Counted from the stretch's first letter, positions 1,870 through 36,077 are shown. The stretch: 64,000 nucleotides of DNA from Acidimicrobiia bacterium (GCA_031406385.1 JANOHI010000012.1:7110-71109); one strand, 5' to 3'. A program made the numbers and translations. The notes: a model not told the origin generated them from the sequence alone.

Positions 1870-2327
1870 TGTTGTTGCCGCGTTGGGTGGCCGTCAAACG
1901 ATTCGTCCACGAACTATCCAAAACGACCCGGATGAGCGCGGTCCGCGCCGTCGGCGATGGATGCGTTGTCGCCGTCACGATGAAGCGCCGGGGAGTGCGA
2001 CCACTTCTGACCGGTTTGGGCAGTCGCGGCGACGTCATCGATCCGCTCCGGGCACGGCGTGTCGCCCACGCGGCTGATGCGGGGCTGGGCCTCGTTCCCG
2101 TGCGCCCGACCTGTCTGCGACGCTCCTTGGTGCTGCTTCGGGAGTTGCGGCGGCTCGGGCTGGCCGGGACCTTGCATGTCGGCGTGAGGAGCGAGAATGG
2201 AGTGGTGCTGGCGCATGCGTGGATACAGGTCGGCGACGAAGTGGTCAACGATGACCGCGCAGTCACGGACCGTTTCTCGTCGATCGCAGCCGGGGAGCTC
2301 GAAGACCTTCTGCCCCGGTTCACATGA
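1869..2327 (+). CDS. lasso peptide biosynthesis B2 protein (transglutaminase-like leader peptidase), copy 1
   Basis: 152 aa. The Cys/His/Asp signature PTCLRRSL...LAHAWIQVGDEVVNDD is typical of lasso B2 proteases. An ATGA overlap with the cyclase gene lies at 2324-2327. Confidence 0.85.
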   Translation: MLLPRWVAVKRFVHELSKTTRMSAVRAVGDGCVVAVTMKRRGVRPLLTGLGSRGDVIDPLRARRVAHAADAGLGLVPVRPTCLRRSLVLLRELRRLGLAGTLHVGVRSENGVVLAHAWIQVGDEVVNDDRAVTDRFSSIAAGELEDLLPRFT

Positions 2328-4048: not shown

Positions 4049-4076
4049 GAGTCAGCGAGACGACGGTAATTGTCGG

Positions 4077-4220
4077 CTACGGCCCGCTTTGGCCACAGTC
4101 GCTCATTCCGCCGACCTGAGTGACGTTCATACCGCCGCCGTCCGGGCAGCTGCCGCCCTGACCAAGGGTGAGGCTGCTGAGGGTACCGAACCGCTTCAGT
4201 GTGGGTGTCTTATATACCAT
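4077..4220 (-). CDS. lasso precursor peptide A1 (47 aa: MVYKTPTLKRFGTLSSLTL / GQGGSCPDGGGMNVTQVGGMSDCGQSGP)
   Basis: This is an internal ATG (4220) of the 74-aa ORF, with GGAG 6 nt upstream (4227-4230). The leader fits YxxPxLx3Gx5Tx exactly (Y3,P6,L8,G12,T18). The core starts with Gly and has Asp at position 8. It lies between the cyclase and ABC exporter genes. Confidence 0.75.
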   Translation of the reverse strand: MVYKTPTLKRFGTLSSLTLGQGGSCPDGGGMNVTQVGGMSDCGQSGP

Positions 4221-4327
4221 GAGAGTCTCCTGGTCGACGATGATGAAACGACCATACCTGAACCGGCCACTCTCCGCAACTGATTTTTGTTGTTCAAGCA
4301 CACACTGCGTTCCGACGCAGCCTCATA

Positions 4328-6280
4328 TCAGACCGGCTGTTCGGGCTGGTAGGCCGCCGCCTGGAGATTGAACAACCGGGCGTAGGTGCCATCGAGTTCG
4401 AGCAGCGCCCGATGCGTTCCCGACTCCACGATGTGTCCGGCGTCCAACACATAGATGCGGTCGGCGCTCGAGACGGTGCTGAACCGATGGGAGATCACAA
4501 TGACGGCCTTGCCCGCGCACAGCTGCCGAAGGCTGCCGAACAGCGCGGCTTCAGCGTCGGGGTCAAGCGACGATGACGGTTCGTCCAAGACGACCAGTGC
4601 AGCCTTGCGGAAGAAGGCTCGGGCAATTGCGACCCGCTGCCATTGGCCCAACGAGAGGTCGCGTCCGCCCGTGAACTGGGGGGCAAGAAGTGTGTCGTAT
4701 CCGGCCGGGAATTCCTCGAGGAAGTCAGCCGCTCCGGCGTCGCGTGCGGCCTCCCTCACCGCTTCTCGATCATCGGCGTGCTGCCACCGCCCGAAGCCGA
4801 TGTTCTCCGCTGCCGAGAAGAAGAAGCGGGTGTAGTCCTGGAAGACGAAGGCCACATGTTCGCGGACGCTCACGTCGTCCATCTGCTGAACATCTGAACC
4901 GTTCCACGACACCGTTCCGCGGTCTGCGACATACAGGCCGCCGAGCAGCTTGGCGAGGGTGGTCTTTCCAGACCCATTGGCCCCGACCAGTGCGATGACT
5001 TCACCCGTTCGAACGGTGACGTTCACGTCGACGACAGCGTCGTTCGGAGCATTGGGATAGCGAAACCCGAGTCGGTCGCTGCGAACGGTGAGCGGTTCGT
5101 CGGCGGCAAGATCGAAATGTGCTCGAGCGCTCATCTCGGCCTGACGATTGGCGGCGTCGCCGAGGAATCGGTCGACCTCGTGGAGGAAGGTTGTGCACTC
5201 GAAGATCATGCCGAATCCGCCGATGAGTGATTGCGCTCGTTGCGCCAAGAGCACGATGGCAGCGGCAGCGACCGCACTTTCGGCGATGGTAATCGTGCCC
5301 TCGTCGAGGAGGCGGATGAGGATCGCAAGCGTGCCGCCCATCACCACTGCGCTGATCAGCCGAGCGATCGTTCCGATCGCGAAGCGGCGGCGCCCAACTT
5401 CGCGAAGCCGCTTGATTCGGGCCGACCACAGCCCTGAGTGTCGGCTGGTGAGGTACGACGCAAGGTTGTAGCCCCGGACCTCCTTGGCGGTGTCCTTCTG
5501 ACTCAAGAGGTGAAGGAGGTAGTGGCGCTGTCGCGAGACTTCGGTCTGCTCGACCTCGAAATCGATGTTCAACAGTGTTGCCGCACGCGTCGCCAGCACG
5601 ATCGGAAGCGATCCCGCAAGGGCCACGAACAACAGCGCGGGTTGGATCATCGCCAGCGTGATGGCCACGGCAACCATGGCCAGCAGCGACCCGACCATGC
5701 CGATCAACGCCGTTGCGAGTTGCATAGGCCGAAACGTCGAGTTGGCGAGGACTCGCTCGAGCCGGTTGTGAAACGCCGAGCGGTCGAAGTCGATCAGGTC
5801 GGCTGCGGACGCAGCGCGCACAACGTCCTCCTGTGCCTCGCGAGCGAGCAGATCGGTGACCACCTTTTGCAGCTCCCCGCGCGCCAAGTTGATGATCGCC
5901 GAGATCGTGAGCAGGACAACGACGACCATGGCCCATGGCAGAGCGTCGCCGGCATCGGCGGTCTTGCCGAGGTTGACAACTCTGGTGAGGAGTTGACGAA
6001 TCGCTAGGAGCTGAGCGGCCGCCAGCAGCGAGCTGACGAGCTGAAGGACGGCGACAGCGACGAACTCCCGCCTCGCGGCGCGCATGATCAACCGTAGGGA
6101 CGACCGGAGCAAGGCAGGGAACGCTCGGAGCGAGCGTTTCTGCCGAAGGTCGACGAGCTCGTCGTACGTGAAGGTGTCTAGGTCCAACGGTTCGGGTGCG
6201 GCCGCGGTAGTCGCGCCTGAGGAATTGGCCGAAGCATCCTCGGCAGTTCCGGAGACGCCGCTTTTCATAACGTTCGTCAC
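4328..6280 (-). CDS. ABC exporter, fused permease-ATPase (McjD-like lasso exporter candidate)
   Basis: 650 aa with a multi-TM N-terminal half. It carries Walker A GANGSGKTT, signature LSLGQWQRV and Walker B LVVLDEPSSSLD. Confidence 0.9.
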   Translation of the reverse strand: MTNVMKSGVSGTAEDASANSSGATTAAAPEPLDLDTFTYDELVDLRQKRSLRAFPALLRSSLRLIMRAARREFVAVAVLQLVSSLLAAAQLLAIRQLLTRVVNLGKTADAGDALPWAMVVVVLLTISAIINLARGELQKVVTDLLAREAQEDVVRAASAADLIDFDRSAFHNRLERVLANSTFRPMQLATALIGMVGSLLAMVAVAITLAMIQPALLFVALAGSLPIVLATRAATLLNIDFEVEQTEVSRQRHYLLHLLSQKDTAKEVRGYNLASYLTSRHSGLWSARIKRLREVGRRRFAIGTIARLISAVVMGGTLAILIRLLDEGTITIAESAVAAAAIVLLAQRAQSLIGGFGMIFECTTFLHEVDRFLGDAANRQAEMSARAHFDLAADEPLTVRSDRLGFRYPNAPNDAVVDVNVTVRTGEVIALVGANGSGKTTLAKLLGGLYVADRGTVSWNGSDVQQMDDVSVREHVAFVFQDYTRFFFSAAENIGFGRWQHADDREAVREAARDAGAADFLEEFPAGYDTLLAPQFTGGRDLSLGQWQRVAIARAFFRKAALVVLDEPSSSLDPDAEAALFGSLRQLCAGKAVIVISHRFSTVSSADRIYVLDAGHIVESGTHRALLELDGTYARLFNLQAAAYQPEQPV

Positions 6281-6399: not shown

Positions 6400-9300
6400 A
6401 TGAGCATCGATAGGCGAACCGGAAACCCACTGTCGAAAGCGCCGAGAGGCCTATGGCTCGGTGTGATCACCTTGGTTGCCCTGGCCACGCTCATTCCTGT
6501 CATTGACTCAATCGTCAGCACAGTTCGCGTCTCCGCAGCGGCGCCTGAGAGCACTCAGGCTTCACCGGCGGTGTTGACTCCCTCGCCCTATTCGGTCGCC
6601 CCATGCGGTGTGCTTCGTCCTGCAGATGAGCCCAGTTCCCCGACAATCGTTCTGAAACCCCGTGTCGTATCGGCGTCGATACGCCCCGATGCGATGGTGT
6701 CGTTCGACTCCGGCCTCGTCCTCGTCGATGGTGCAGGTTCGAAGATGATGGGACTCGCCACCGACGGTACGGTGCGCTGGTCCTATGCGACCAACACCGA
6801 TTCTTCAGCCGGGGATAGAGGTTCGCTCGCAGTCGACCCATCCGGTTCGACCTACCGGGTGAAGTACCCGAACGAAGTGCTGAAGCTGAGCCCGACCGGA
6901 CAAACGCTGTGGACCGCCACCCTCAGCTCGCCAATCGCACGAATCTTCGGAACAGTAGTGCAGGGAACGTGGCGTGTTGTAGTCGTCACTTCAACATCGA
7001 CCCGAGTGCTTTCGATGGCAGGCGCTGACGTTGGCTCAGCACCCGTCAGCGGACGCAGCTCTACACCGACCGGGGACGGCGGACTGTTGGTCAGCGACGG
7101 TACGTACGTCCGAAAGTACCGTCCATCATTCGTCCCTCAATCGGTGTTCGGGTCCCCATACAAGGACAACGACCCCATGCCTGAAGGGGCTCCGTTGCAC
7201 TTCTACCAGCAAGGTGACGCGGTCGAGCTGCTTGACGGCCGAATCCTCGTGGGCGACGGAGGTTGGGGAGTTTGGTTGGTGGACAGCCGAGGGCTCGTTC
7301 TCGGTCTCGTGCCCACCGCCGAGCTCGGTGGACTGACGGAACAGCCGAAACTCGTCATCATCGGAAGCGAGCTTTACTACACGGCGGGCGCCAAGTTCAC
7401 AAACGATCAAAAGGTGCTGGCGCTGCCGATCAGCGACCTTGTTGCCCGCGCCGTCCAAAATGGTGGAGGCGCCCGACTGGGTTTCGGAGCTGGGCTCGTT
7501 ACCTCGGTCGCAGGAAACTACTTCGCACCTGGATCGCCTGCGACGGTAGAGCTCGAGCTCGACGCATGGTGGGGGAGCATCGGCGCCGCAAGCCTCCAGT
7601 ACACCGTTCGTCGATCTTCCGAAGTGGCGGCCGACGCTCCCGCGATCACGCAATCCATGGCAATCGCGCCAGGAGCTCGGCAAGCGTTAGCGCTTCCACC
7701 GCCCGTTCCGGGAGCATACGAAGTGGATGCTCGTTTGCTCGTCGACGGAACACCGGTTGGAGCTACCTGCCTCCACTACGCGATCGGTGCACCGGGACAT
7801 TCACTGAACATGGCAACGCTTCCGCCCGGCGCAGATGCCGGTGGACCGAGTGGTCCCCGGGGTGTCGCTTTGGCTGATGAGCTCGGAACTGGCTCGCACC
7901 GGATTACGTTGCATTGGAACCGGTTGCTCGACCCCGCCGGCCTCACGACATTTGACAACTATGACGCCGAGATCAAGGCCGCCGCAGCCGAGTCGGCAAG
8001 GCGGGGAGTGCCATTTAGCGTTCAGCTGGGTGAGGGCGGCGTTGAACGAGCATTCGTCGACAACGGCACATGGGAGAACCGGACCCGCGAGGTCGTGGCT
8101 CATTGGGCGCCGTACGTCGACTATTGGGAGGCCTGGAACGAACCGAACATCACCTTCGGGTCAGCCGCGGCGTATGTGGATCAAGTTCTCGTACCCTTTC
8201 GGCGAGCTGTTCGAGCAGCAGATCCCGGGGCAAGAGTGATCGGCGGCTCTCCGGTCGGCATGTCGATTCAGTATTTTCGCGAGATTGGCCAGGCTGGCGG
8301 TTTCAATTCGATGGATATCGTGGCCATCCATCCATACACCGGGCACAATAGATCCTGGGAAGAGGAGGGCGTGCCGGGTCGGATCCAAGAGCTCAAGGCG
8401 ATTCTGACAAGTAACGGCAAGAGTGCGATGCCGATCTGGATAACCGAGTTTGCATTTTGGTCGAATGGTCCGGCCAACTGGTTCGCCCAAGCAGATAAGA
8501 GTGCGCGTGTTGTCATCTGGAACAAAGCACTGGCCAGCGGCGTGTGGCAGTATTTCCTCCCCGAAGGTAGTTGGGGAAATGATGGTGTGACGTTTTCGGC
8601 AATCGAGACCGGTGGCCCGGTGAAGCCAGCCGCTCTTGCGCTCATGGAGACGAAGAACCAATTGACTGGACGCACCTTCTCCGGGTGGATTACGACGAAC
8701 ACTCCGCACACCTATGCTGCCCGCTTCGGTCCGGCGCCCGGCGGGAACGATCAGTTGGTTGTGCTCTGGGCGGACGACCAATCGTTGGATGGCACGCTGA
8801 GCACCGATCGAGCGCTCGACGCAACGCTCATCGACCAGTACGGAGCGAGCGGACCCCTCGCCCTATCGGAAACGGAAACGAAGCTTACGTTCCGGTCATC
8901 GGTGCAGTATGTGCGACTTCCCGCCGACGCCGATCTGAGTATCAGCGCGGGGTCCGCATGGGGCAAGAACCTGGCCGCAACCGAGGCGGGCGGCGTGGCG
9001 GTCGCCTCGAGTAGCAGCCCTTGGAACCCGCCGTCGGCCGCCATCGACGGCATCGCTGACGCTCGCGGCGTTGGAGAATTCCCTGGTTCACCCGCGTGGG
9101 CGTCGGCGGTTGGCGATCCGCTGCCAACGTTGACGGTCACGTTGTCACCATCGGCTTCTGTGAACACGGTGTTGTTCTCGACTGCCGGTTTGGGGAGCGT
9201 GCTTTCCGGTGTGCGCGACATCGATGTTGAGGTCCAAGCGTCTGACGGCACGTGGGCGTATGTCGGCGGTGTGCGCGATCTGTTCTTCGAGCGCGCCTCT

Positions 9301-10404
9301 GCCATCACATTCCCAGCGAGAACCGCCAAGGCCGTGCGTCTCAAAGTCTTGCGGGTGAACTTCAGTGGTTATGCGGGAGGCGCAAAGCCTTGGTTCTGGC
9401 CGCCGCCGGGCAGCCCGGATCTCGAACTTCCGGGATACGCGCTCTATGGCCCGGCGATCATCCGAGAGCTCGAGGTGTATGCCGCGACAGCTACAGGCCC
9501 GGCGCCTGCGACGACCACGTCATCAAGCTCTACGACTACGACCTTCGGAACATCGACCACGACGTCGCTGATCCCGCCGAGCACCACGAGCAGCACTGTG
9601 GCCCCTGCACCTTCTACGAGCGTGCTCACGGTTCCGGGTGTGGTGAGCACGATCGGACCGACGAGCTCTGTGGCGCCGTCAGTCACGCCGTCATCCATAC
9701 CCTCGACAACGTCCACTTCGCTCACGCCGAGCAGTTCCACGTCAGCTCCACCGACCACGACCACTGCACCGAGCTCGTCGACCACGACCACACCACCGAC
9801 CACCACCACTGCACCGAGCACCACCACTGCACCGACCACGACCACACCGACCACGACCACTCCACCGACCACGACCACTCCACCGACCACCAGCGCACCG
9901 ACCACGACCACTCCGCCGGCCACGAGCGCACCGGCCCTGACAGTCCCGGTGTACGTGTACACGCCGCCCCCGGGACAGACGTCACTGAGGCTGCCGCCAC
10001 TTTCGCCTCCCGAGCCCGTCGGGAATCCTGCTCCGCCATCCTCGACCAGTACGCCAACGACGATCACGAGCATTCCCGAGCCTCTGGTCTTTGCCACGGG
10101 CCGTACCGATGTGATTGTGACAAACACCTTAAATGCCGCGGGAGTGACTTCGGCGGTGCCGACCTCCACCAGCGCCAAGCGAAGGACATCCACGACGATT
10201 CCGTCGTTGCTCCCCCTGGTTCCGGCGCGCAAGGAATCCGCAAGCAAAACTCTTCCTCGCAAAGCGAGCCCGACAACGACGGCCCCGAAGGCCAAGAGGA
10301 AGGCCGCAGCGACCTCATCGCGCGCTGCGTCCCGCAAAGCCGTTCGCCAGACGACCCGGACCACGTCTCGTTCAACAACACGCGTCTCCACTCCGAATCG
10401 CTGA
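6400..10404 (+). CDS. large secreted multidomain protein: clan GH-A-like glycoside hydrolase + discoidin (F5/8 type C)-like domain + Thr/Pro/Ser-rich tail
   Basis: It has an N-terminal TM/signal (LWLGVITLVALATLIPVI). The motifs YWEAWNEPN and PIWITEFAF match the acid/base and nucleophile Glu contexts of clan GH-A. A discoidin-like segment ends at VRLKVLRVNF. A ~300-aa T/P/S-rich tail ends in a Lys/Arg-rich stretch. Confidence 0.8.
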   Translation: MSIDRRTGNPLSKAPRGLWLGVITLVALATLIPVIDSIVSTVRVSAAAPESTQASPAVLTPSPYSVAPCGVLRPADEPSSPTIVLKPRVVSASIRPDAMVSFDSGLVLVDGAGSKMMGLATDGTVRWSYATNTDSSAGDRGSLAVDPSGSTYRVKYPNEVLKLSPTGQTLWTATLSSPIARIFGTVVQGTWRVVVVTSTSTRVLSMAGADVGSAPVSGRSSTPTGDGGLLVSDGTYVRKYRPSFVPQSVFGSPYKDNDPMPEGAPLHFYQQGDAVELLDGRILVGDGGWGVWLVDSRGLVLGLVPTAELGGLTEQPKLVIIGSELYYTAGAKFTNDQKVLALPISDLVARAVQNGGGARLGFGAGLVTSVAGNYFAPGSPATVELELDAWWGSIGAASLQYTVRRSSEVAADAPAITQSMAIAPGARQALALPPPVPGAYEVDARLLVDGTPVGATCLHYAIGAPGHSLNMATLPPGADAGGPSGPRGVALADELGTGSHRITLHWNRLLDPAGLTTFDNYDAEIKAAAAESARRGVPFSVQLGEGGVERAFVDNGTWENRTREVVAHWAPYVDYWEAWNEPNITFGSAAAYVDQVLVPFRRAVRAADPGARVIGGSPVGMSIQYFREIGQAGGFNSMDIVAIHPYTGHNRSWEEEGVPGRIQELKAILTSNGKSAMPIWITEFAFWSNGPANWFAQADKSARVVIWNKALASGVWQYFLPEGSWGNDGVTFSAIETGGPVKPAALALMETKNQLTGRTFSGWITTNTPHTYAARFGPAPGGNDQLVVLWADDQSLDGTLSTDRALDATLIDQYGASGPLALSETETKLTFRSSVQYVRLPADADLSISAGSAWGKNLAATEAGGVAVASSSSPWNPPSAAIDGIADARGVGEFPGSPAWASAVGDPLPTLTVTLSPSASVNTVLFSTAGLGSVLSGVRDIDVEVQASDGTWAYVGGVRDLFFERASAITFPARTAKAVRLKVLRVNFSGYAGGAKPWFWPPPGSPDLELPGYALYGPAIIRELEVYAATATGPAPATTTSSSSTTTTFGTSTTTSLIPPSTTSSTVAPAPSTSVLTVPGVVSTIGPTSSVAPSVTPSSIPSTTSTSLTPSSSTSAPPTTTTAPSSSTTTTPPTTTTAPSTTTAPTTTTPTTTTPPTTTTPPTTSAPTTTTPPATSAPALTVPVYVYTPPPGQTSLRLPPLSPPEPVGNPAPPSSTSTPTTITSIPEPLVFATGRTDVIVTNTLNAAGVTSAVPTSTSAKRRTSTTIPSLLPLVPARKESASKTLPRKASPTTTAPKAKRKAAATSSRAASRKAVRQTTRTTSRSTTRVSTPNR
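9745..9925 (+). repeat. imperfect short tandem repeats (ACCACGACCAC / CCGACCACC units) encoding the (T)nP(P) linker
   Basis: Reiterated ccgaccacgaccac(t/a)cc units are visible. They translate to TTTTPPTTTTAPSTTTAPTTTTPTTTTPPTTTTPP. Confidence 0.8.
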
Positions 10405-10488
10405 CGATCCACCAGCCGAGTTCGAAGGCAACTACTATGCACACCTACGGACTGGAATCAACCTGCCAACCCTAAACACCTAGATGTC

Positions 10489-11619
10489 TCATGTTCGCGC
10501 CTCGAGCAGTCTCTCGATTTGCCTCATAATCTCCGTCCACTCGTACGGTGCGGCTGCTTGAGGTGCCTTCGACGACCACGCTGCGAGGGTGTCGCCACTC
10601 AGTGCGTCGCCGAGCAGCAGCGCCAATTCATCTACATCGTCGGGGTTTTGTTGGAGCAGTCCCGCACCAGAACCGGCGATCGCTGAAGCCGCTCCTGCAA
10701 GGCTGGTCGTTATCACTGGTATCCCCATGGCGAGTGCTTCGACGATCACGATGCCGAACGGCTCGTACTGGGTCGGGAGTAGAAAGAGATCGGCAGCGGC
10801 GAAGGACTTCCCGACGTCGTTGGTCGGGCCGTGCCAACGCACGCGGCCCTCGAGGCCGAGCTGCTGGATAAGCCGGGCGTAGTCGGAGATGTCGGCCTTG
10901 CCCACCACGTGGACCTCGACGCGTTGATCGGCGGTGAGTGCGACCGCCCGCAAGAGCACCCCGAAACCCTTTCGGTGAAGTTCGTTGCCGACGAAGAGCA
11001 CTGCGATGGCTTCGTCGGCGATGCCCATGGCTGCCCGGGAGGACGCACGTTCGCTGACGCGTCGCTCGGCCGAGAACTCGGAAGCACTGAATCCGTTGGG
11101 TATCACCACGATCGCTGATGGATCGACCCCGTAGTGCGCGATCAGGTCCGCCTTCACCTGTTCGCCGACGACCACGACCTTTCGAGACCCAGAGGCCCTG
11201 AAGTAGATCCGCTCGAGGCGCAGAAGGGTTCGGTGGCGAGGCATCAAGAATCGAACCCATGCGGGTATCGACAGTCCTTTGACCGGGATAGGTCGGCCTG
11301 CCCGGAGCCACGCTCGGTGCACGCTTCCGACCATCAACAAATCACCGGGGGGGCAGTTCGCACCGAGAGTCACCACGCGATCGACCCCGATCGTGCGCAA
11401 CGCCTCGGCGGCAAGATTGCGGAACTTCGCCGGGCGTTGAGCATCGGCGCGCTCAATCTCGATATGGCGGATTCCGGCCGGCAGGAGTTCGGGCGACTCC
11501 AGTTCCCCTCCGACGAACCACGTGGTGTGTCGTTCGCCGAGATGCCGCAACAACTCCCAGGCGACGCGTTCGACCCCGCCCCGTCGGTGGGCGCCACTGA
11601 ACACCACGGCGACCTTCAC
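10489..11619 (-). CDS. glycosyltransferase family 4
   Basis: 376 aa with a GTG start. It has the N-terminal MKVAVVFSGAHRRGGVERV and the C-terminal GT-B motif EPFGIVIVEALAMGIPVITT. A GTGA overlap with the upstream GT4 gene lies at 11616-11619. Confidence 0.9.
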   Translation of the reverse strand: MKVAVVFSGAHRRGGVERVAWELLRHLGERHTTWFVGGELESPELLPAGIRHIEIERADAQRPAKFRNLAAEALRTIGVDRVVTLGANCPPGDLLMVGSVHRAWLRAGRPIPVKGLSIPAWVRFLMPRHRTLLRLERIYFRASGSRKVVVVGEQVKADLIAHYGVDPSAIVVIPNGFSASEFSAERRVSERASSRAAMGIADEAIAVLFVGNELHRKGFGVLLRAVALTADQRVEVHVVGKADISDYARLIQQLGLEGRVRWHGPTNDVGKSFAAADLFLLPTQYEPFGIVIVEALAMGIPVITTSLAGAASAIAGSGAGLLQQNPDDVDELALLLGDALSGDTLAAWSSKAPQAAAPYEWTEIMRQIERLLEART

Positions 11620-12701
11620 GCGCAGACCGACCGATAGAGCGCGGCGAGCTTGTCCGCGTGCGTCTCAATCGAGTAGCGCTCGCGCTGAACTGCCTGGAGC
11701 CGGGCACCCAGTTGGGGCCGGTCCGGGCGCTCGGCCGTGTGGCGCAGCGCAGCCCCCAACGCGTCGGGATCACCTGCCGGGTAGAGCAGTTCGGGGAAAT
11801 CCCGAAGTATCTCCCGGTGGCCTCCACCGTCGGCGGCCAGCACCACAAGACCGTCGGCCATCGATTCGGCGACGCTGAGCCCAAATGGTTCGTCTGATCG
11901 GGGGGCGAGTTGAAACGCCGATGCCGCCCGGATCGGACAAAGGTCGGTCTGAGCTCCAACGAACTGAACCGAACCTTTCACTCCCAAGGTGCCGGCCAGT
12001 CGTTCCAGCGATGGGCGCTCTGCTCCATCGCCGGCGATGACCAGTCGCCAACCTTCGCTCCCGAGCTGGGAGCGCGCCCATCCACGGATCGCTTCATCGG
12101 TTCGCTTCTCGCGTTCGAGGCGCTGCGCAACCAGCACCTGTCTTCCGGCGTTCGGGACGAGTTCGGCGCTCGCAACGCCGTTTGGGATGACGATTGTGGT
12201 TCCCGGGACCCGTTGAGCCACATAGTCGCTGATTGCGATCTGCGCAGACAGCCGTGACGAAATGAAACGATCGGCGGAGCGGGGAATTCCGCGTGACTGA
12301 GCAAAGTGAAGTGTCGCAACCACCCGTGATCGCCGCAGTGCGCTCACTCCCACGGCAACCATCTCTGCTGCGGTCATGTGGGCGTGGATGACATCCGCCC
12401 GACCGCTTCGCAGCAGCGCGTACGCAACTGCTGGGGAACTCGTCGCCTCCCGGTGTTTGACGCTCTGGGGCAGTGCTGAACGCATGCGGACGGGATCTCC
12501 CCCGATCACTTCCACGGCGAACCCGCGTGCGACCAGTGCCGGGGCCACCATCGTTATGTACCGTTCGACACCGGCAAATGCGTCGGATCGCACGACGTGG
12601 ACTACTCGCATGGACGGATGCTTCTCATCCCCGTCGTCGTCGTCTGCCCGGCCCTGCCACGTTCGCACGCTATCGGGGCTTCGGTATTCGTCGGACAACA
12701 C
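11616..12701 (-). CDS. glycosyltransferase family 4 (start may be the internal ATG at 12611, MRVVHVV..)
   Basis: It carries MRVVHVVRSDAFAGVERY and EPFGLSVAESMADGLVVLAADGGGHREIL. The longest start lies 3 nt after the stop of the cyclase-like gene. Confidence 0.85.
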   Translation of the reverse strand: MLSDEYRSPDSVRTWQGRADDDDGDEKHPSMRVVHVVRSDAFAGVERYITMVAPALVARGFAVEVIGGDPVRMRSALPQSVKHREATSSPAVAYALLRSGRADVIHAHMTAAEMVAVGVSALRRSRVVATLHFAQSRGIPRSADRFISSRLSAQIAISDYVAQRVPGTTIVIPNGVASAELVPNAGRQVLVAQRLEREKRTDEAIRGWARSQLGSEGWRLVIAGDGAERPSLERLAGTLGVKGSVQFVGAQTDLCPIRAASAFQLAPRSDEPFGLSVAESMADGLVVLAADGGGHREILRDFPELLYPAGDPDALGAALRHTAERPDRPQLGARLQAVQRERYSIETHADKLAALYRSVCA

Positions 12702-12704
12702 CGG

Positions 12705-13883
12705 CTAGTGACGGATCGCCGACTTGGTCGTAGCCAAGGTCGATAGCCACGCCAGGTGCAGCAACATCGAGGTGTTGGCGTGCGGCTCGGATTCGGTTGA
12801 CCAGTGAGTCTTCAACCACGACGCGTCGATGCCTTCGGGGAGTCCGGTGCCGTCCCAGCCACGTGCGAACTCGCGAACAGCCGGCCCAAACATCGCGCGG
12901 GTGAGGTGGGATTTCGTTTCCCGGCGGAGCAGTGCCGGCGGGAGCCGATCTCGGAAAGCAGTTTCTATGAGTCTTCGGCGTCCGGAGTGCCGATAGGGCG
13001 GTAGAACGAAAGCCGCCTCCTTGACGATATCCGGGTCCATGAGAGGACTTCTCACCTTGAGTCCACACCACTCCCCGAACGCACCCATGTTGTGACGGAT
13101 CGTCTGGACACTTGGTCTGCCGAGGTAATACGTGACCCAGCTACGAGCCGAGAGGGGCTCTCTCGCCGCCTCAATCGAGCCCTTCTGTATCGCCTCAGAC
13201 AGCAACTCTTCGCTGAGCCAAGGAAGATCCCATCCGAATCGATTCTGACGTTCGATCATCCTCGCCCGTAGGGAAACTGGCGCAACCATGAAGGCAAGAT
13301 CTCGTGGCACCGAGCGAAGGTCCCAAGCGAAAATCTTCGCCTTCATCTCCGGCAGAGCCCCTAGCCGCCGAGGACCAAAGACTTCATCGCCACCTTCGCC
13401 CGTAAGCAGAACACCCGGCGCTAGTGAGCGCCAAATGTCAGCCCTGGTCAGTAGCCCTGGCGGCCAAACTGCGCCAAGGTCACGAAGCGCTTGTTGTGGT
13501 CCCGGCCCGAGCAGATCCAGATCCGGGTTCGTCCGAACGATCGCATCGGTGATCCCGAGAAAACCCAGGACCAATTCCTGGTAGCGCGTCTCGTGCGTTT
13601 CCGTCAGGTCGGGAAAACGGAAGGTGACCGGAACCGGAGGATCATGGGAGGAGGAGCGGCAAGCTTCGGCTGCGGCAGCGAGCACAACGGACGAGTCGCA
13701 GCCGCCGGAGAACTCGACGTATAGCGGTTGGTCGGTGAGTTCACGAGCGACGCGCTCGACCAAGCACGCCCAAAGATCGCCACACCGCTCTTCGCCCGCC
13801 GGCGGGAAGGCAACGCCACCGGCCCAAGAGAACGGGTAGTTGAAGAGCTGTTGGTCACGGTCAGGCGACAGAACCGAGACCAC
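12705..13883 (-). CDS. asparagine-synthetase-domain protein: lasso cyclase homologue lacking the N-terminal domain
   Basis: 392 aa with a GTG start. The PP-loop YVEFSGGCDSSVVL is already at residue ~55, so there is no room for the ~200-aa N-terminal domain. It lies 31 nt downstream of precursor A2. Confidence 0.8.
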   Translation of the reverse strand: MVSVLSPDRDQQLFNYPFSWAGGVAFPPAGEERCGDLWACLVERVARELTDQPLYVEFSGGCDSSVVLAAAAEACRSSSHDPPVPVTFRFPDLTETHETRYQELVLGFLGITDAIVRTNPDLDLLGPGPQQALRDLGAVWPPGLLTRADIWRSLAPGVLLTGEGGDEVFGPRRLGALPEMKAKIFAWDLRSVPRDLAFMVAPVSLRARMIERQNRFGWDLPWLSEELLSEAIQKGSIEAAREPLSARSWVTYYLGRPSVQTIRHNMGAFGEWCGLKVRSPLMDPDIVKEAAFVLPPYRHSGRRRLIETAFRDRLPPALLRRETKSHLTRAMFGPAVREFARGWDGTGLPEGIDASWLKTHWSTESEPHANTSMLLHLAWLSTLATTKSAIRH

Positions 13884-13914
13884 TGCGACGGACTCGTGGC
13901 GTGAACGTCAGGCG

Positions 13915-14103
13915 CTACGACGCAAATTGAAACCCGCCAACACCATTGGGAAGATCTCCTGGCTGCAAGGGTCCGCCCTGGACCGAGTAGAAACCGTCGG
14001 ATTTCGGGAAGAGCGGAGACTGCGCCAGCGTGAGGTCCTGCACAGACCCGAGGGTCTGGATCGCGGGAGCTTCGTAGGGCAGCTTGCTAGAGGAGTTGTT
14101 CAT
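13915..14103 (-). CDS. lasso-type precursor peptide A2 (62 aa: MNNSSSKLPYEAPAIQTLGSVQDLTL / AQSPLFPKSDGFYSVQGGPLQPGDLPNGVGGFQFAS)
   Basis: The leader fits YxxPxLx3Gx5Tx (Y10,P13,I15,G19,T25) and aligns position by position with the A1 leader, including the shared LTL(G/A)Q junction. It sits directly upstream of the cyclase-like gene. The C-terminal residue is Ser. Confidence 0.7.
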   Translation of the reverse strand: MNNSSSKLPYEAPAIQTLGSVQDLTLAQSPLFPKSDGFYSVQGGPLQPGDLPNGVGGFQFAS

Positions 14104-14145: not shown

Positions 14146-14664
14146 GTGTCCCCTAGGGGATTGCGCTATCCACTAGGCCGAGGAGCCGGGCCTAGGGTGC
14201 TCCAGGTGGAGCTCGTCGAGACCCTTTCCGCGTTGTGCCGAACCTGTGGCTCGTGCTGCGATGGCTCACTGTTCGAGCTCGTAGTGCCGTCGGAGGGGGA
14301 CCTCTTCGAGGTTCGCCAGCCGTGCGAATTCCTTGCGGACCTGACGTGTCAACGGTACCTCGAGCGCCCTCGGTCGTGCCGGAAGTTCCACTGCGGCGTT
14401 CTCGGCAGATTCGCAGATGGGAGCAGTTCCGCAGACGAGGCTGGAGATGCGATCCGGAAGTTTCGTGAGGTCGTTTCCGACTTGTCCGCTCGCCTTCCGG
14501 GCGATCCCGGGAAGGCATTGGCTCGCCGTATCTATGAGTCCGAGCCAGAGTTGATGCTGAGGGCGCGAAACGGTGAGTCCGTTGCCGTCGATACGCTGTT
14601 TCTCGTCGCCGGCTACCGCGAACTCAGGCTGCGATTCATTGGTTCCTCTGACTGGAACGGATGA
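14146..14664 (+). CDS. YkgJ/CxxCxxCC-family cysteine-cluster protein (start possibly GTG at 14197)
   Basis: CRTCGSCCDGSLF ... CEFL..CQRYLERPRSCRKFHC matches the putative zinc/iron-chelating CxxCxxCC domain pattern. AGGAG at 14181-14185 favours the 14197 start. Confidence 0.7.
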   Translation: MSPRGLRYPLGRGAGPRVLQVELVETLSALCRTCGSCCDGSLFELVVPSEGDLFEVRQPCEFLADLTCQRYLERPRSCRKFHCGVLGRFADGSSSADEAGDAIRKFREVVSDLSARLPGDPGKALARRIYESEPELMLRARNGESVAVDTLFLVAGYRELRLRFIGSSDWNG

Positions 14665-15949: not shown

Positions 15950-16222
15950 GTGGAACGCACGTATCAACTGAGGAAGGCCGAACTCACCTGGCGCGAAGTC
16001 GGCGACGCCATCGTGATCTTGGATCTGTCCGATTCTTCGTACCTGTCGGTCAGCGGAGCGGGACGCGTGATTTGGGACCGCCTCGACAGCGGCGCAACGC
16101 TCGCCGAACTGGTGGCCGCCGTGGTGGAAGTGTTCGACGTGAGCGAAGCGTTGGCCGCCTCGGACACGTCGTCGTTCCTCGATGCGCTGGAGGATCGCAA
16201 ACTCCTTGTTGCCCGGGCCTAG
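15950..16222 (+). CDS. PqqD-family protein (stand-alone RiPP recognition element / lasso B1)
   Basis: 90 aa with a GTG start and GGAG 5 nt upstream (15941-15944). AIVILDLSDSSYLSVSGAGRVIWDRLDSGATLAELVAAVVEVFDV..A..D..SFLDALEDRKLL is the classic PqqD pattern. Confidence 0.8.
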   Translation: MERTYQLRKAELTWREVGDAIVILDLSDSSYLSVSGAGRVIWDRLDSGATLAELVAAVVEVFDVSEALAASDTSSFLDALEDRKLLVARA

Positions 16223-16833
16223 TTCTTCGCCTTGGCGTCAGGCTCGGCCAAGAGTCCGAGCTCGTGCGCCCGTGCCATCGCTTGGGCCCGGTTGCGCACG
16301 TCGATCTTGCGGAACAACAACCGTTGGGTGTTCTCGACCGTCTTGATGGCGATACCCAGCGTCCGAGCCGTCTGCTTGACCGATTCGCCCCTTTCGATGG
16401 AACGGAGCAGGTCGAGCTCACGCCCCGAGATCGAGATCGGTGAGATCGGTTCTGGATTGCCGCTCCGCAGCGCACCGCACAGCGAATCGACCTGCAACTC
16501 GGTCAGCACGGCCCGACCATCCGCAGCAGTGTGAACCGCCCGAATCAGCGCCTCGACGGTTTCGTCGTCTGCGACCACTGCGAGGGCGCCGGAGCGAACG
16601 GCTCGGAGGAGTTCGGCACCATCCGGTGCGGACCGAACAGCGAGGACGGCCTTCGGGGAACGCGGAGTCAACCCGGCGAGAAGATCAGTGCCTTCAGTGC
16701 CTGTCACGACCACGACATCAGCTGCGTCGGCATCGGCCAGGACCACGTGCTCATCCAACACGCGCGCCAGCAGTGCGACCAGCAGAGGTTGGTTGCCAAC
16801 GACTGCCGCCGATGGCCGCGCCGGCCTCGTCAC
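16219..16833 (-). CDS. LuxR/NarL-type HTH regulator with degenerate receiver-like N-terminal domain
   Basis: The C-terminal HTH reads ISGRELDLLRSIERGESVKQTARTLGIAIKTVENTQRLLFRKIDVRNRAQA. The proposed GTG start at 16833 overlaps the upstream stop (GTGA, 16830-16833). The longer 282-aa ORF would overlap the upstream gene. Confidence 0.75.
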   Translation of the reverse strand: MTRPARPSAAVVGNQPLLVALLARVLDEHVVLADADAADVVVVTGTEGTDLLAGLTPRSPKAVLAVRSAPDGAELLRAVRSGALAVVADDETVEALIRAVHTAADGRAVLTELQVDSLCGALRSGNPEPISPISISGRELDLLRSIERGESVKQTARTLGIAIKTVENTQRLLFRKIDVRNRAQAMARAHELGLLAEPDAKAKN

Positions 16834-17471
16834 GAAGCAACCTCGGTCTGGGTGAGCAGCCCGAGCCGAATTGCTGTGGCGACAGCCTGTGACTGACTCT
16901 GAACCCCGAGGCGTCGGAATACGCGCTGCTTGTGGTTCTCGATGGTTCGGTGACTTACCCCGAGCGCTTCGGCCATGTGCCTGGAGGTGTGCCCCCGGGC
17001 CAGCAGGTGCAATACCTCGAGCTCCCGGGCGGTGAGCGGGACAGGGCCGAGACGGGGCGCCTCCCATCGGCGCAGCGTGCGCTGAGCCGGATCGATCACT
17101 GCCCTCACTAGGACAGCTTCCCCGGAGGCCTCGTCGACGAAGGAGTCGAAACCATCAGACAGCGCGCTCGCCAGTTCGGCGACGGACAGGCTGGCGTGCA
17201 CGCCGACGATACGTGCGGCCGGCGCGGCGGACCGAACCGCCCGGGCTGCAGCTCGCCACTGCGCCTCCGATCCAGTTCGCTGCCCGCCTTGATGGATCAC
17301 CACGATGTCGGGTTCGAGAGCTGCGAGATCGGCCATGGACGTCGGCTCGGTGGCGGCGACGACCTGCAGCCCGGCCGCAACGTCGAAGAGCAACTCGAGG
17401 CCTCGCCGCCACCAGTGAGAAGGGTCGACGATTGCGAGACGGAGGGGAGGCGCCACCGATGACTCTTTCAT
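16830..17471 (-). CDS. LuxR/NarL-type response-regulator-like protein lacking the canonical phospho-acceptor Asp
   Basis: The HTH reads LTARELEVLHLLARGHTSRHMAEALGVSHRTIENHKQRVFRRLGV. The receiver-like N-terminus reads RLAIVDPS..PDIVVIHQGG, where DIVVIH replaces the usual D-x-V-L-x-D. Confidence 0.8.
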   Translation of the reverse strand: MKESSVAPPLRLAIVDPSHWWRRGLELLFDVAAGLQVVAATEPTSMADLAALEPDIVVIHQGGQRTGSEAQWRAAARAVRSAAPAARIVGVHASLSVAELASALSDGFDSFVDEASGEAVLVRAVIDPAQRTLRRWEAPRLGPVPLTARELEVLHLLARGHTSRHMAEALGVSHRTIENHKQRVFRRLGVQSQSQAVATAIRLGLLTQTEVAS

Positions 17472-17998: not shown

Positions 17999-19279
17999 GT
18001 GTGTTCCTGCAAGAACGCACTCCAAGGCGAACGACCGGTGGCTCTTCCGGAGTCTGCCCTGTCCGAGCTCTTCGACGCGTTTCGCACTGGTGGTGACGGT
18101 GTCGCCCTGACACGAGACGCGGTGCGTCTCGTGATGCAGGAGTTGATCGAGTCCGAAGCGACCGGCGTGATCGGCGCCGAAGCCCATGAACGCGCGGCCA
18201 CACGCACGAACGAACGTAACGGGCACCGTGACCGGCTGCTGTCGACCAAGGCCGGTGAAGTGGAGCTGCGCATCCCGAAATTACGCCGTGGCTCGTTCTT
18301 CCCGAGCATCTTGGAACCCCGCCGCCGTATCGACCAGGCCCCGTACGCGGTAGTCATGACCGCTTACGTGAACGGTGTATCGACTCGCGCCGTCGACGAC
18401 CTGGTCGCCGCGTTGGGCGTCGATACGGGCATCTCCAAGTCGGAGGTGTCCCGGATCTGCAAACGCCTCGACGAACATGTCGACGCGTTCCGGAACCGGC
18501 CCGTGGGCCACACTTCCTTCCCGTACGTCTACCTCGTTGCCACCAACGTCAACGTCCGCGACACCGCCCTCGGCCAGGTCGTGTCCAAGGCCATCGTGAT
18601 CGCCACCGGCATCACTGCCGGCGGTGACCGTCAAATCCTCGGCCCCGCCGTCGGTGACTCGGAATCCGAAGCGTGCTGGGGCGAGTGCTGCCGGTCGTTG
18701 CGCCGCCGCAAGCTGGACGGGGTGCGGCTCGTCATCTACGACGCCCACGAAGGCCTCAAAGCGGCGATCCGCAAACACTTCACCGGCGCGTCATGGCAAC
18801 GCTGCCGGGTGCATCTCGCCCGCAACCTGCTGCCGCGCGTCCCGAAAGGCCCACCAGGACACGGTCGCCGCAGCGTTCCGGATGGTGTTCATGCATCCCG
18901 ACCCGGCCGCCGTCACCGCGGCGTGGGCGACACCACCAAACTCCTCACGAAACAGTTCCCCCGCGTCGCGGAACTCATGACCTCGGCCAAGACCGACGTC
19001 CTCGCATTCTGTCCGTTCCCGCCCGAACACTGGCGCAAGATCTGGTCAAACAACCCGCTCGAGCGACTCAACAAGGAAGTGAAACGACGCTCGAACGTCG
19101 TGCAGATCTTCCCCGACGAAGCCTCCGTGATCCGACTCGTCGGCGCCATACTCGCCGAACAACACAACGAATGGACCACCGCCCGCCACTACCTCTCCGA
19201 AGGCTCAATGGCGAAACTCAACCTCGAGCGCGAAACTCCATCCCTGTCAGTCGGCGAACTCATCAACGGCCAACCGTAA
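17999..19279 (+). mobile_element. IS256-family (mutator-type) transposase gene, apparently degenerate
   Basis: It has strong family motifs (ERNGHRDRLLSTKAGEVELRIPKLRRGSFFPSILEPRRR, VSTRAVDDLV, IWSNNPLERLNKEVKRR). The first catalytic Asp context reads YVYLVATNVNVR instead of YLDAT. The conserved segment KAHQDTVAAAFRMVFMHPDPAAVTAAW lies in another frame between ~18845 and ~18935, which implies two compensating frameshifts. Confidence 0.8.
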
Positions 19280-19608
19280 CGAGGACCACACCTCGAAGCC
19301 CACCAGCCCCGGGGACGGAATCGGCAGCCCCAAGGGTCCGCAGGAAGGTCAAGAGAAGCAACGTGAACTGGACGCACCGGTTGCACCAATCGAAGACCTT
19401 TCGAACTGCCCTCGGCGCGTGGGGACCCGCCGTACGAACCCTCGACCCACAGATCCGTCGTCGGCTACGTACGGATCGGGCCCAGTCCCGAACCGCAGCG
19501 AGGATCTATCGCTTCGGCGATGCGGAGCGGGTGAGGCGACCTGATCAGGCGACTCTGCCCTCTAACTGGCCGAGATCGTCTGGCTACTCCCTCCCTCAAC
19601 CGTTCGTG

Positions 19609-20532
19609 ATGGTTCATCGGGACGTCTGGCTCGTCGGAGAACACGCGACGCCGGTCACATCGACCGGAGAGATCCTTCTCGGTCCGTACCGAAACCTCCC
19701 ATGGTCATACGCCGCGGAACCTCATCCGGACGTCGACGATTTCATCCGCCGCGGCGACTACGGATCACAAGCAGAACAGGCCCACGATGGGCCAGTCTTC
19801 AGCACAGTTGGGCGCTTCGACCGGAACTACTTCCACTGGCTGACCGAAACCTGTGCCCAGCTCGAAGCACTCGAGGCACTGCGCTCAGTCAGCTCACTGG
19901 AGCCGGAGCTACTCACGAGGGCAAGCCCGCTGCCCTTCCAACAGCAGTCACTGAACCTCTTCGCGCCGTCGGCTCGCACGTTTGCTTGGAATCCGGCAGA
20001 CGGACCCCTCCGAGTGACCGAACTGATTGTTCCCTGGCAACCAGGAGTTCCCTCCGGTTGCAGCCCTCGAAGCCTCAGATGGCTGCAGCGGGCCGCGGAT
20101 TCAGAAATCAGTTCAACGCGCCGGACTCGGCGGCTCCACATCCAACGCAGCGTCCAAGGGTGGCGGTCTATCGCGAACCATGCGGATTTGAACGCGGCCC
20201 TCGACAAGTTCGGATTCGAATCGATCGATCCTGCATCGCTGACGCTCCGGCAGCAGATCCGGCTGTTCTCCGAGGCGAACTGGATTCTCGGGCAACACGG
20301 CGCGGGCCTGACAAACATGATCTGGGCCGACCGACCTCAGGTCATCGAGATCAAGGGCACGTATGGTGCTGCGGAGTTCGTCAACCTCTGCGCGTGCGTG
20401 GGCGCGATGCACCACGGCGTCGCTGCAAGCGAACAAGTCGAGGACTCTCTGTATGTTCACCCGAAGGCGGCGGTCGACATACTCACTCGGCTTTCCACGG
20501 CCGAGCGGCGACAGAATCAGCGTGGCGATTGA
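19609..20532 (+). CDS. glycosyltransferase family 61 / DUF563 protein
   Basis: NYFHWLTETCAQL and ILGQHGAGLTNMIWA are the two signature blocks of DUF563/GT61. The long upstream extension of the ORF (from 18673) overlaps the transposase in another frame and is not counted. The true N-terminus is uncertain and may have been truncated by the IS. Confidence 0.7.
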   Translation: MVHRDVWLVGEHATPVTSTGEILLGPYRNLPWSYAAEPHPDVDDFIRRGDYGSQAEQAHDGPVFSTVGRFDRNYFHWLTETCAQLEALEALRSVSSLEPELLTRASPLPFQQQSLNLFAPSARTFAWNPADGPLRVTELIVPWQPGVPSGCSPRSLRWLQRAADSEISSTRRTRRLHIQRSVQGWRSIANHADLNAALDKFGFESIDPASLTLRQQIRLFSEANWILGQHGAGLTNMIWADRPQVIEIKGTYGAAEFVNLCACVGAMHHGVAASEQVEDSLYVHPKAAVDILTRLSTAERRQNQRGD

Positions 20533-20682
20533 CCAACCAGGCGGTGCCTGAACAGGGTGAAGAATCGCCCGGCGGTGTTCTCAGCAGGCCGAACGGCCGG
20601 GCCGCTTTCGTCAAGCACTACGCTTCATTCGGTGGTTCTTGCTGACGATCGCTCGGCTCGTGGAAGCGGAAGGGGCGGCTCG

Positions 20683-22329: not shown

Positions 22330-22429
22330 TGGACCGGCCGGTCGGTCGACGCCGCATCCTCATCGGTGTCGGGAGCCAACTCGGCAACGGCGCGGTGGCC
22401 ACCGTGCTCTAGACGCTCGTGCTCCTCAT

Positions 22430-22684
22430 CGACTGCGGTCGAATCACCGTCGCATTGGTTCGATGTTGGAGAGCGCGCCGTTCCTCTTCGCTGACCTGCG
22501 CTCGCTCTGCGTTGGATAAGCCGTGCTGGTGATCTCCCACCGATTCAGCACCGTGTCGAGCGCCGACCGGATCTACGTGCTCGACGCCGGCCGAATCATC
22601 GAGCACGGCACCCACGCTGACCTACTGGCAGCCGACGGATCGTATGCACGCTTGTTCAAGCTGCAAGCCGCTGCCTACACCTGA
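22430..22684 (+). pseudogene. 3' remnant of a second ABC exporter gene (paralogue of 4328-6280)
   Basis: Positions 22520-22684 translate to [54 protein letters not shown]. The C-terminus of the 4328-6280 product reads [54 protein letters not shown]. An in-frame TAA lies at 22517-22519 where Lys is expected, and the upstream similarity decays quickly. Confidence 0.65.
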
Positions 22685-22737
22685 TTCGTTCGAAATCTCT
22701 AGCGGACAAGGCGGGTCGCAGGAGAGAAGGGGAACGG

Positions 22738-28518: not shown

Positions 28519-28544
28519 GAAAAGACCTGTGGCGTTGCCAGTCG

Positions 28545-35444: not shown

Positions 35445-35445
35445 G

Positions 35446-35892: not shown

Positions 35893-36077
35893 CCTGGTCT
35901 GAGGGACCGAAGGGTCGGTCGACCCGACGTTTCTCATGCCCGGGCAACGGTAGTCGCCGGAATTCCGCCGGTACGATGGGCCGAGCATGAGTTCCCCTCA
36001 ACGCATCGGGTACTCGCCGGTAGGAACCGAACCGCCTGTTCCTCGGCCGACCCCCCGCCGATGACCGAGGGGCAACG

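Follow-up and report, generated by a model that had tools for sequence, protein, structure and literature searches.

The gene string A2-cyclase-GT4a-GT4b

In a 64,000-nucleotide (nt) stretch of DNA from an Acidimicrobiia bacterium (GCA_031406385.1, JANOHI010000012.1:7110-71109), which is referred to below as the window, four co-oriented genes follow one another on the minus strand between positions 14103 and 10489. They encode a lasso-type precursor peptide (A2), a short cyclase-like enzyme and two glycosyltransferases (GTs) of family GT4, designated GT4a and GT4b. The genes, and a hexamer in front of them, are as follows.

14103-13915, minus strand: A2 precursor gene, 62 amino acids (aa); open reading frame (ORF) with a match to NF033521
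13883-12705, minus strand: short cyclase gene, 392 aa; PF00733
12701-11616, minus strand: GT4a gene (longest ORF), 361 aa; PF00534 and PF13439
11619-10489, minus strand: GT4b gene, 376 aa; PF00534 and PF13439
14110-14115, minus strand: TAGACT, a -10-like hexamer whose 3′ end lies 6 nt before the A2 ATG

All four ORFs had been proposed in a first-pass annotation made from the sequence alone, and they were recovered with the coordinates and spacings given there: 31 nt from A2 to the cyclase gene, 3 nt from the cyclase gene to the longest start of GT4a, and a GTGA overlap in which the GTG start codon of GT4b overlaps the GT4a stop. The 3-nt spacing applies to the longest GT4a ORF, but not to its likely start. 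Because every GT4a orthologue and the gene call of an 86%-identical relative (locus L001) begin with the N-terminus MRVVHVV, GT4a probably starts at the ATG at 12611, and the gap between the cyclase gene and GT4a is then 93 nt.

A terminator scan detected no terminator-like site in any of the three junctions of the string, and in the A2-cyclase and cyclase-GT4a gaps predicted folding did not exceed that of shuffled sequence (z = +1.06 and +0.20). A terminator or attenuator hairpin at either of these two gaps was therefore rejected, and the terminator between the A2-cyclase pair and the GT4 genes that the first-pass annotation had named as contrary evidence did not appear in the junctions. Judged by their sequences, the members of the string are genuine genes and not chance ORFs, because the cyclase, GT4a and GT4b have domain matches, A2 has a leader match, and homologues are conserved. 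PF00534 matched GT4a with an E value of 5e-20 and GT4b with an E value of 6e-27, both proteins also matched PF13439, and their EX7E motifs read EPFGLSVAE and EPFGIVIVE, respectively.

The position of the TAGACT hexamer is kept in L001, where it reads TAGGCT. A leaderless A2 transcript would fit this position; a generic sigma-70 scan detected no promoter. A perfect 10-bp palindrome, CCCCTAGGGG, lies at 14150-14159 in the divergent promoter region, approximately 47-56 nt upstream of the A2 start, and L001 has it unchanged. Conceivably, it serves as an operator for the nearby LuxR-type regulators.

Precursor A2 and its homologues

The proposal that A2 is a lasso-type precursor and that the next gene is cyclase-like was borne out: A2 scored 19.2 bits with the NCBIfam model lasso_leader_L3 (NF033521; cutoff, 19), and PF00733 was found in the cyclase. 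The A2 leader is KLPYEAPAIQTLGSVQDLT-L. The lasso leader pattern Y/WxxPx(L/V/I), with Thr at position -2, reads YEAPAIQTLGSVQDLT-L in A2. The predicted core, AQSPLFPKSDGFYSVQGGPLQPGDLPNGVGGFQFAS, has Ala1, Asp10 and a C-terminal Ser, and ends in ...FQFAS. No Asp or Glu occurs at core position 7, 8 or 9 of A2, position 10 being the first acidic residue. This numbering presumes cleavage after Thr(-2)-x; cleavage one residue later would restore the canonical register.

Homologues of A2 with 45-82% identity adjoin orthologous cyclases; like A2, they have the leader, the pattern A1...D10-G-[FY]-Y and a Ser at the C-terminus. Among them, identity to A2 is 79% for P0031, 71% for P0032 and 45% for the 56-aa peptides from loci L168 and L170; these peptides share Ala1, eight residues, Asp10-Gly-Phe/Tyr-Tyr and a terminal Ala/Gly-Ser. 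Since the same register is conserved across this subclade (L001, P0031, P0032 and L168/L170), the off-register placement of Asp10 is, on this comparison, real and not a sequencing quirk. The exact A2 peptide was absent from a collection of 15 billion proteins in which the adjoining cyclase is present; A2 seems to have been missed by gene calling in the source assembly.

A family of short cyclases

The short cyclase consists of a synthetase domain only. PF00733 (Asn_synthase) matched residues 41-344 (E = 8e-15), the PP-loop reads FSGGCDSS, and the N-terminal glutaminase-like domain is missing. NCBIfam cyclase models gave weak matches only (25.6 bits vs a cutoff of 300), and the family to which the enzyme belongs was recognised by none of the NCBIfam models scanned. 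An AlphaFold2 model (predicted local distance difference test score, 88.7) matched beta-lactam synthetase, TsnB9, AsnB and carbapenam synthetase via the synthetase domain alone. No solved lasso cyclase was among the fold-search matches, and a PDB sequence search matched AsnB in its PP-loop region and nothing else.

A word-indexed search yielded 30 relatives, all of approximately 390 aa, and an exhaustive profile search (E <= 1e-30) yielded 1,032 clusters at 50% identity; the best 150 of these clusters were almost all 333-442 aa in length (one of 508). The PP-loop is invariant across the family. More than 200 short-cyclase loci were found in a scan of species-representative genomes, nearly all of them in Actinomycetota, and cultured carriers belong to Isoptericola, Cellulosimicrobium (including sp. 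PMB13), Tessaracoccus (T. oleiagri), Microbacterium (M. ulmi), Occultella and Amycolatopsis. Two short cyclase genes, often in tandem, were observed in L025, L029, L034, L042, L045, L073, L074, L079 and L080; in Cellulosimicrobium sp. PMB13 (L074), for example, they lie at 8341-9549 and 9644-11074.

We annotated 86 short-cyclase loci with purpose-built hidden Markov models (HMMs), taking genes within 10 kb of each cyclase. The following genes were found, as a percentage of the 86 loci.

Leader-bearing small ORF (precursor): 86%
HprK-like kinase: 86%
PqqD: 80%
ABC exporter: 78%
B2: 69%
NTP_transf_5: 66%
GT4: 38%
GT2: 31%
Bac_transf: 28%
Another, full-length cyclase: 12%

Because these loci share a precursor, PqqD, B2, an HPr-kinase-like kinase, NTP_transf_5 and an ABC exporter, their gene content suggests that they are the actinobacterial counterpart of the paeninodin/pseudomycoidin type. 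By elimination, the short enzyme is the candidate cyclase, since just 12% of the loci hold another, full-length one.

A lasso leader motif was common to 76 precursors neighbouring short cyclases. The core starts with Gly or Ala in 58% of them and has Asp or Glu at positions 7-9 in 66%; the terminal residue is Ser in 43 (57%), and Ser or Thr occurs within the last three residues in 70 (92%). Of the 26 precursors in which core positions 7-9 hold neither Asp nor Glu, about 18 carry a Lys exactly six residues ahead of the first Asp (K-x5-D). A DKKxGxSDGFTF-like motif occurs in many of them, and the distance from the leader Thr ranges from 10 to 15 residues. This observation concerns L025, L028, L034, L042, L047, L061, L062, L066, L074, L075, L079, L081, L082, L084 and L085, and suggests either that a lactam forms on the Lys side chain or that the cleavage site is shifted.

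Other peptide-module genes in the window

Further genes of the kind found in clusters for lasso-type RiPPs (peptides that are made on the ribosome and modified after translation) lie next to A2 and, at a distance, within the polysaccharide locus described below.

14146-14664, plus strand: Cys-rich protein, YkgJ/YcgN-like, divergent from A2; weak NCBIfam YcgN match
15634-14636, minus strand: HPr-kinase-like Ser kinase; PF07475 (5.8e-10); Walker A motif GPSGVGKST, then LVADD
15950-16222, plus strand: PqqD-type RiPP recognition element (RRE; B1); PF05402 (2e-13)
16219-17067 and 16830-17471, minus strand: two LuxR-type regulators; PF00196; 84-89% identity in L001
29963-31153, minus strand: NTP_transf_5 nucleotidyltransferase; PF14907 (1.3e-34)
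35446-35988, minus strand: lasso B2 leader peptidase, transglutaminase-like; PF13471 (2.4e-20) and NF033537

The Cys-rich protein, which contains CxxCxxCC and four more conserved Cys and probably starts near 14206, is also conserved in the A2 subclade, occupying the same position with 39-41% identity in L168 and L170 and 84% in L001. The kinase scored 251 bits with an HMM built from the kinases of other short-cyclase loci, and the A2 cluster combines a C-terminal Ser in the precursor with an in-cluster HPr-kinase-like kinase, as paeninodin and pseudomycoidin do. NCBIfam lasso_PqqD matches to the PqqD gene were weak and below cutoff. The NTP_transf_5 gene lies 16 kb from A2; in L002, L088 and L170 it forms one contiguous block with the A and cyclase genes, and it is likened by gene type to PsmN/LppN of paeninodin-type clusters. 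The distant B2 gene to which the first-pass annotation had pointed is a true lasso B2 (64.7 bits with NF033537 vs a cutoff of 33).

In addition, a canonical lasso cluster (964-6280) occupies the first 6.3 kb of the window.

964-1869: HprK-like (kinase-like) gene
1869-2327: B2
2324-4048: full-length cyclase, 574 aa
4220-4077, minus strand: precursor A1, core GQGGSCPD..., with a predicted Gly1-Asp8 ring
6280-4328, minus strand: ABC exporter

Both B2 genes of the window (1869-2327 and 35446-35988) thus lie outside the A2 cluster, and they scored alike with the family HMM (41.7 and 40.9 bits), which is contaminated by fused B2-kinase ORFs. The B2 at 35446-35988 is a candidate partner of A2; the B2 and exporter of the canonical cluster could also serve it. 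An ORF at 3-941, which runs off the start of the window, gave weak arginine-methyltransferase-like matches; its C-terminus looks PqqD/RRE-like by eye, and it may be the recognition element of the canonical cluster.

The polysaccharide module

The polysaccharide locus spans 18.6 to 38.4 kb of the window, and a further gene of this kind converges with GT4b. The genes at 20557-29999 were identified by Pfam and NCBIfam, and orthologues of them with 47-71% identity adjoin RiPP genes in L010, L002, L016, L088 and L101.

6400-10404, plus strand: secreted glycoside-hydrolase-like protein, Thr/Pro-rich, 1334 aa; weak Pfam matches
18673-20532: GT61 gene, longest ORF
20557-22329, plus strand: Wzz/tyrosine autokinase; TIGR01007 (149 bits)
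22738-23913, minus strand: GT4c
24185-27421, minus strand: GT2-GT4-GT4 (triple GT) fusion
27274-28686, minus strand: GT4d
28545-29999, plus strand: Wzy_C protein (WzyC1)
31146-32192, minus strand: GT4e, whose stop overlaps the NTP_transf_5 start by 8 nt
32206-34065, minus strand: second Wzz/CbiA-type protein
34014-35543, minus strand: second Wzy_C protein
36078-38372, plus strand: DUF4012 protein, at the end of the module; PF13196 (2.2e-29)

With a Wzy_C polymerase/ligase, a Wzz/BY-kinase and several GTs, the locus has the composition of a Wzy-dependent one. No initiating phosphoglycosyl transferase or Wzx flippase was detected among ORFs of at least 150 aa at 18-64 kb of the window. The DUF4012 gene occupies the same edge in RiPP-free loci, and the genes beyond 38.5 kb belong to unrelated metabolism. 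WzyC1 and NTP_transf_5 are convergent, with overlapping ends. A Mutator-family transposase gene (17999-19279; PF00872, 2.7e-118), whose 3′ end overlaps the longest GT61 ORF, has the A2 cluster and its LuxR genes on one side and the main polysaccharide locus on the other; it may be the reason why the peptide module is split here and contiguous in L002 and L170.

Co-inheritance of the peptide and polysaccharide modules

Conservation of the gene order in relatives, which the first-pass annotation had proposed as a check, was observed. The locus L001, in which the cyclase is 86% identical, has the same order A-C-GT4a-GT4b, and L011, with a cyclase of approximately 37% identity, has a kinase, A and C followed by a GT4a orthologue (53% over the 51 residues available). 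The order A-cyclase-GT4a is kept in three lineages, and the linkage is not accidental.

In L002, L009, L010, L016, L088, L101 and L170, orthologues of the polysaccharide genes (44-71% identity) adjoin the RiPP genes, although their order is shuffled; those seen in this setting are GT4a, GT4b, GT4c, GT4d, GT4e, the triple GT fusion, WzyC1 and the autokinase. GT4b orthologues were found in L009, L088 and L101 and in many RiPP-free loci, and GT4e orthologues in L010, L088, L101, L037, L052 and L078. The pair GT4e-NTP_transf_5 is kept in L002, and the pair NTP_transf_5-WzyC1 recurs in L010, L088, L101 and L170. A kinase-A-C-ABC block stands amid polysaccharide genes in L010, and in L170 the kinase is directly followed by orthologues of WzyC1 (43% identity) and NTP_transf_5 (49%). 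The RiPP-linked loci form a distinct glycan subtype, which adds the triple GT fusion, GT4e and NTP_transf_5, and their WzyC1 is 34-43% identical to that of the window vs 26-29% otherwise.

These data, which bear on orthologous synteny and not on gene frequencies, indicate that the peptide module and this polysaccharide module are co-inherited, in shuffled order, in about nine divergent loci. Chance adjacency and an artefact of the Mutator transposase were both rejected on the ground that the order is preserved in L001 and L011 and the linkage, in different orders, in another seven loci.

A proposed product and the alternatives

We favour, with an about even chance of being right, the reading that the string A2-cyclase-GT4a-GT4b is the meeting point of a lasso-type RiPP module and a Wzy-type polysaccharide module, and that the peptide is phosphorylated and glycosylated. 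The first module, of the paeninodin/pseudomycoidin kind, would comprise A2, the short cyclase, PqqD, the HPr-kinase-like Ser kinase and the Cys-rich accessory protein, with its NTP_transf_5 and B2 genes displaced 16-22 kb away. The second would comprise GT4a to GT4e, the triple GT fusion, Wzy_C, the Wzz/tyrosine kinase, DUF4012 and the secreted hydrolase-like protein. In favour of a lasso identity are the A2 leader, the neighbouring genes of the short-cyclase loci, and the invariant PP-loop and lactam-synthetase-like fold of the cyclase; a phospho-Ser route would fit the Ser or Thr near the end of most precursors and the Walker A and VADD motifs of the kinase; and the link to the glycan genes is seen in the terminator-free string and its recurrence in relatives. 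The most likely product would be a peptide whose C-terminal Ser takes up first phosphate and then sugar, with a ring closed by the minimal cyclase. PqqD would bind the YxxPxI leader, the kinase would phosphorylate the C-terminal Ser of A2, and a B2 peptidase would cut off the leader after Thr(-2)-Leu. The short cyclase would then adenylate Asp10 and close the macrolactam onto Ala1, NTP_transf_5 together with co-transcribed or co-inherited GTs, perhaps including GT4a and GT4b, would place one or more sugars on the phosphate, and the product would be exported. A more far-reaching reading is unlikely, in which a peptide with a 10-residue Ala1-Asp10 macrolactam made by a minimal cyclase is joined, through its C-terminal phosphoserine and via NTP_transf_5 and/or Wzy_C, to an oligo- or polysaccharide from the co-inherited Wzy-type pathway; it would yield a cell-envelope conjugate of RiPP and phosphoglycan.

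Several observations weigh against the favoured reading. If GT4a starts at 12611, the 93-nt gap in front of it could hold a separate promoter. No B2, ABC exporter or NTP_transf_5 gene was found within the A2 cluster itself, and the window's own canonical cyclase has the N-terminal domain that the short cyclase lacks. The rings of known lasso peptides comprise 7-9 residues, and closure at Asp10 would make the A2 ring exceed this canonical size. A control search from the GT side bears on the same question. The 80 closest GT4a relatives in metagenomes were 41-49% identical, and among those in loci of at least 10 kb, RiPP genes were present in 5/35 loci and absent from 30/35. The recurrent locus contained GT4c, Wzy_C, Wzz/BY-kinase, in some cases GT4b, GT4a, GT4d, the secreted hydrolase-like protein and DUF4012; orthologues of the 1334-aa protein (31-34% identity) stand beside GT4a/GT4d in the RiPP-free loci. 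Since the orthologues occur mostly in loci without RiPP genes, the ancestral job of GT4a and GT4b was polysaccharide assembly, and the two enzymes need not act on the peptide. For the same reason, GT4a, GT4b and the 1334-aa protein are core genes of a polysaccharide locus that is widespread and of the Wzy type, to which the peptide module is an occasional guest. The idea that the GT4 enzymes are dedicated to tailoring the peptide is weakened by this search.

A serious alternative, though one that we consider less probable than the favoured reading, is that the two modules make parallel products. GT4a and GT4b would then build a lipid-linked cell-surface polysaccharide, and the lasso-type peptide would be separate and at most phosphorylated, the two being linked by a common process (capsule or biofilm formation) or by co-regulation and not by a covalent bond. 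Apart from the RiPP-free, Wzy-type setting of the closest GT4a/GT4b relatives, this is consistent with the better conservation of the glycan genes (58-68% identity) than of the RiPP genes (35-39%) between the window and L010, and with the up-regulation of capsule-embedded paeninodin-like clusters of Bacilli together with an exopolysaccharide gene (PMC13381572). However, the adjacency of the cyclase and GT4a in three lineages, the overlap of the peptide-side NTP_transf_5 with GT4e and its place next to WzyC1 in several loci, and the distinctness of the RiPP-linked glycan subtype (triple GT fusion, GT4e and a closer WzyC1) all speak against separate products. It is quite unlikely that the phospho-Ser peptide itself primes the glycan in place of polyprenyl phosphate, or that a Wzy_C-type ligase transfers a finished oligo- or polysaccharide to it in one block, to give a peptide-phosphoglycan conjugate; a primer or acceptor role of the peptide had also been suggested in the first-pass annotation. 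Hints in this direction are that no priming phosphoglycosyl transferase or Wzx flippase was found at 18-38 kb of the window, and that Wzy_C stands beside NTP_transf_5 or RiPP genes in L002, L010, L088, L101 and L170; the Bac_transf genes near short-cyclase loci (28%) also accord with it. The Wzy_C family includes O-linking oligosaccharyltransferases, and the sole match of this kind here was a weak one to TfpM, far below cutoff. Against such a conjugate, in most loci the same glycan genes function with no peptide gene present, a priming enzyme could be encoded elsewhere in the genome, and to our knowledge a RiPP-polysaccharide conjugate is without precedent.

That the short Asn-synthetase-like enzyme is no lasso cyclase, and joins Asp10 or the C-terminal carboxylate to another amine, for example that of an amino sugar or a Lys side chain, seems very improbable. 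The missing glutaminase domain implies as nucleophile an amine other than glutamine-derived ammonia, Asp10 lies off the canonical register, one third of the family precursors are without Asp or Glu at positions 7-9, many of them with a fixed K-x5-D, and a full-length cyclase is also present in some loci. On the other side, most of the loci contain B1, B2 and an ABC exporter and lack a second cyclase, and Asp or Glu at positions 7-9 and, as in lasso cores, Gly or Ala as the first residue are each found in the majority of the precursors.

Comparison with known systems

In paeninodin and pseudomycoidin, HprK homologues phosphorylate the C-terminal Ser, and PsmN is needed for hexose addition to pseudomycoidin, whose cluster is PsmA/C/K/B1/B2/N/D, with B1 and B2 dispensable in a heterologous host (PMC6993621). 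The A2 cluster resembles these systems of Bacillota in its lasso-type leader, C-terminal Ser, HPr-kinase-like kinase and discrete PqqD, and in an NTP-transferase gene (likened by type) with predicted phosphorylation followed by glycosylation; the lack of a local B2 at A2 parallels the dispensability of B1/B2. The contrast with pseudomycoidin drawn in the first-pass annotation was wrong, as the C-terminal Ser, the HPr-kinase-like gene and the NTP_transf_5 gene are all present in the window. The system differs in its host phylum (Actinomycetota), its 392-aa, synthetase-only cyclase, Asp10 and the extra Cys-rich protein, and in having GT4 genes directly behind the cyclase, with the NTP transferase and B2 displaced into a Wzy-type locus.

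Nor is pseudomycoidin, the one glycosylated lasso peptide named there, the sole one. Two types are known, the second being the davasins of Streptomyces davaonensis (igt cluster), in which IgtG, a membrane GT2/deacetylase fusion, acts on a Ser hydroxyl of the mature lasso peptide (PMC6993621, PMC11912497). Like the A2 system, the davasin system is actinobacterial, and its Ser is repeatedly glycosylated by a cluster-encoded enzyme. Unlike the A2 cluster, it has no kinase, no NTP transferase and a canonical cyclase, and the enzymes adjoining A2 and the short cyclase are GT4 proteins (PF00534/PF13439) and not an IgtG-like fusion. A predicted cyanobacterial cluster of Stanieria cyanosphaera PCC 7437, mentioned in passing, has a precursor, a cyclase, a PsmK-like kinase, a recognisable GT and no B genes (PMC6993621); it is compared here by description only. 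Lasso clusters with kinases, NTP transferases and GTs have also been noted in rumen Firmicutes (PMC7533575).

The role of the paeninodin-type NTP transferase, and the reason why such clusters sit in polysaccharide loci, are open questions in the field (PMC13381572, PMC6993621). The present locus offers a compact genetic handle on both, with its precursor-cyclase-GT4-GT4 string, its NTP-transferase/GT4 overlap and orthologous arrangements in about nine genomes. Cultured carriers of short cyclases usable for knock-outs include Isoptericola, Cellulosimicrobium sp. PMB13, Tessaracoccus oleiagri and Microbacterium ulmi. The short-cyclase family is large (about 1,000 clusters at 50% identity), and its members of about 390 aa do without a domain of canonical lasso cyclases; should they prove active, no smaller lasso cyclases would be known, and they could be of use in engineering.

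Compared with Wzy-dependent loci, the window has GT4a to GT4e, two Wzy_C proteins, a tyrosine autokinase and DUF4012 arranged as in many RiPP-free loci, but with lasso genes interleaved and with no priming transferase or flippase found in the window. Lasso-type clusters inside polysaccharide loci are already on record: in 2026, paeninodin-like lasso and LPP clusters of Bacilli, of unknown roles, were described as embedded in capsular polysaccharide loci, with an NTP transferase that probably needs a partner encoded outside the core cluster (PMC13381572). These clusters, too, lie inside GT-rich polysaccharide loci, and they encode an RRE together with an HprK kinase and an NTP transferase. Unlike the window system, they have the full lasso machinery or a SipW-like peptidase, and that report describes neither a short cyclase nor GT4 genes strung directly behind a precursor-cyclase pair; in the window system, moreover, the orthology of the glycan genes can be followed through about nine loci. 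New features of the present system are its actinobacterial lineage, the family of short cyclases, an Asp10 register that is conserved, the Cys-rich partner, the GT4 genes directly behind the cyclase, and a complete Wzy-type module whose orthologues can be traced through loci with and without RiPP genes.

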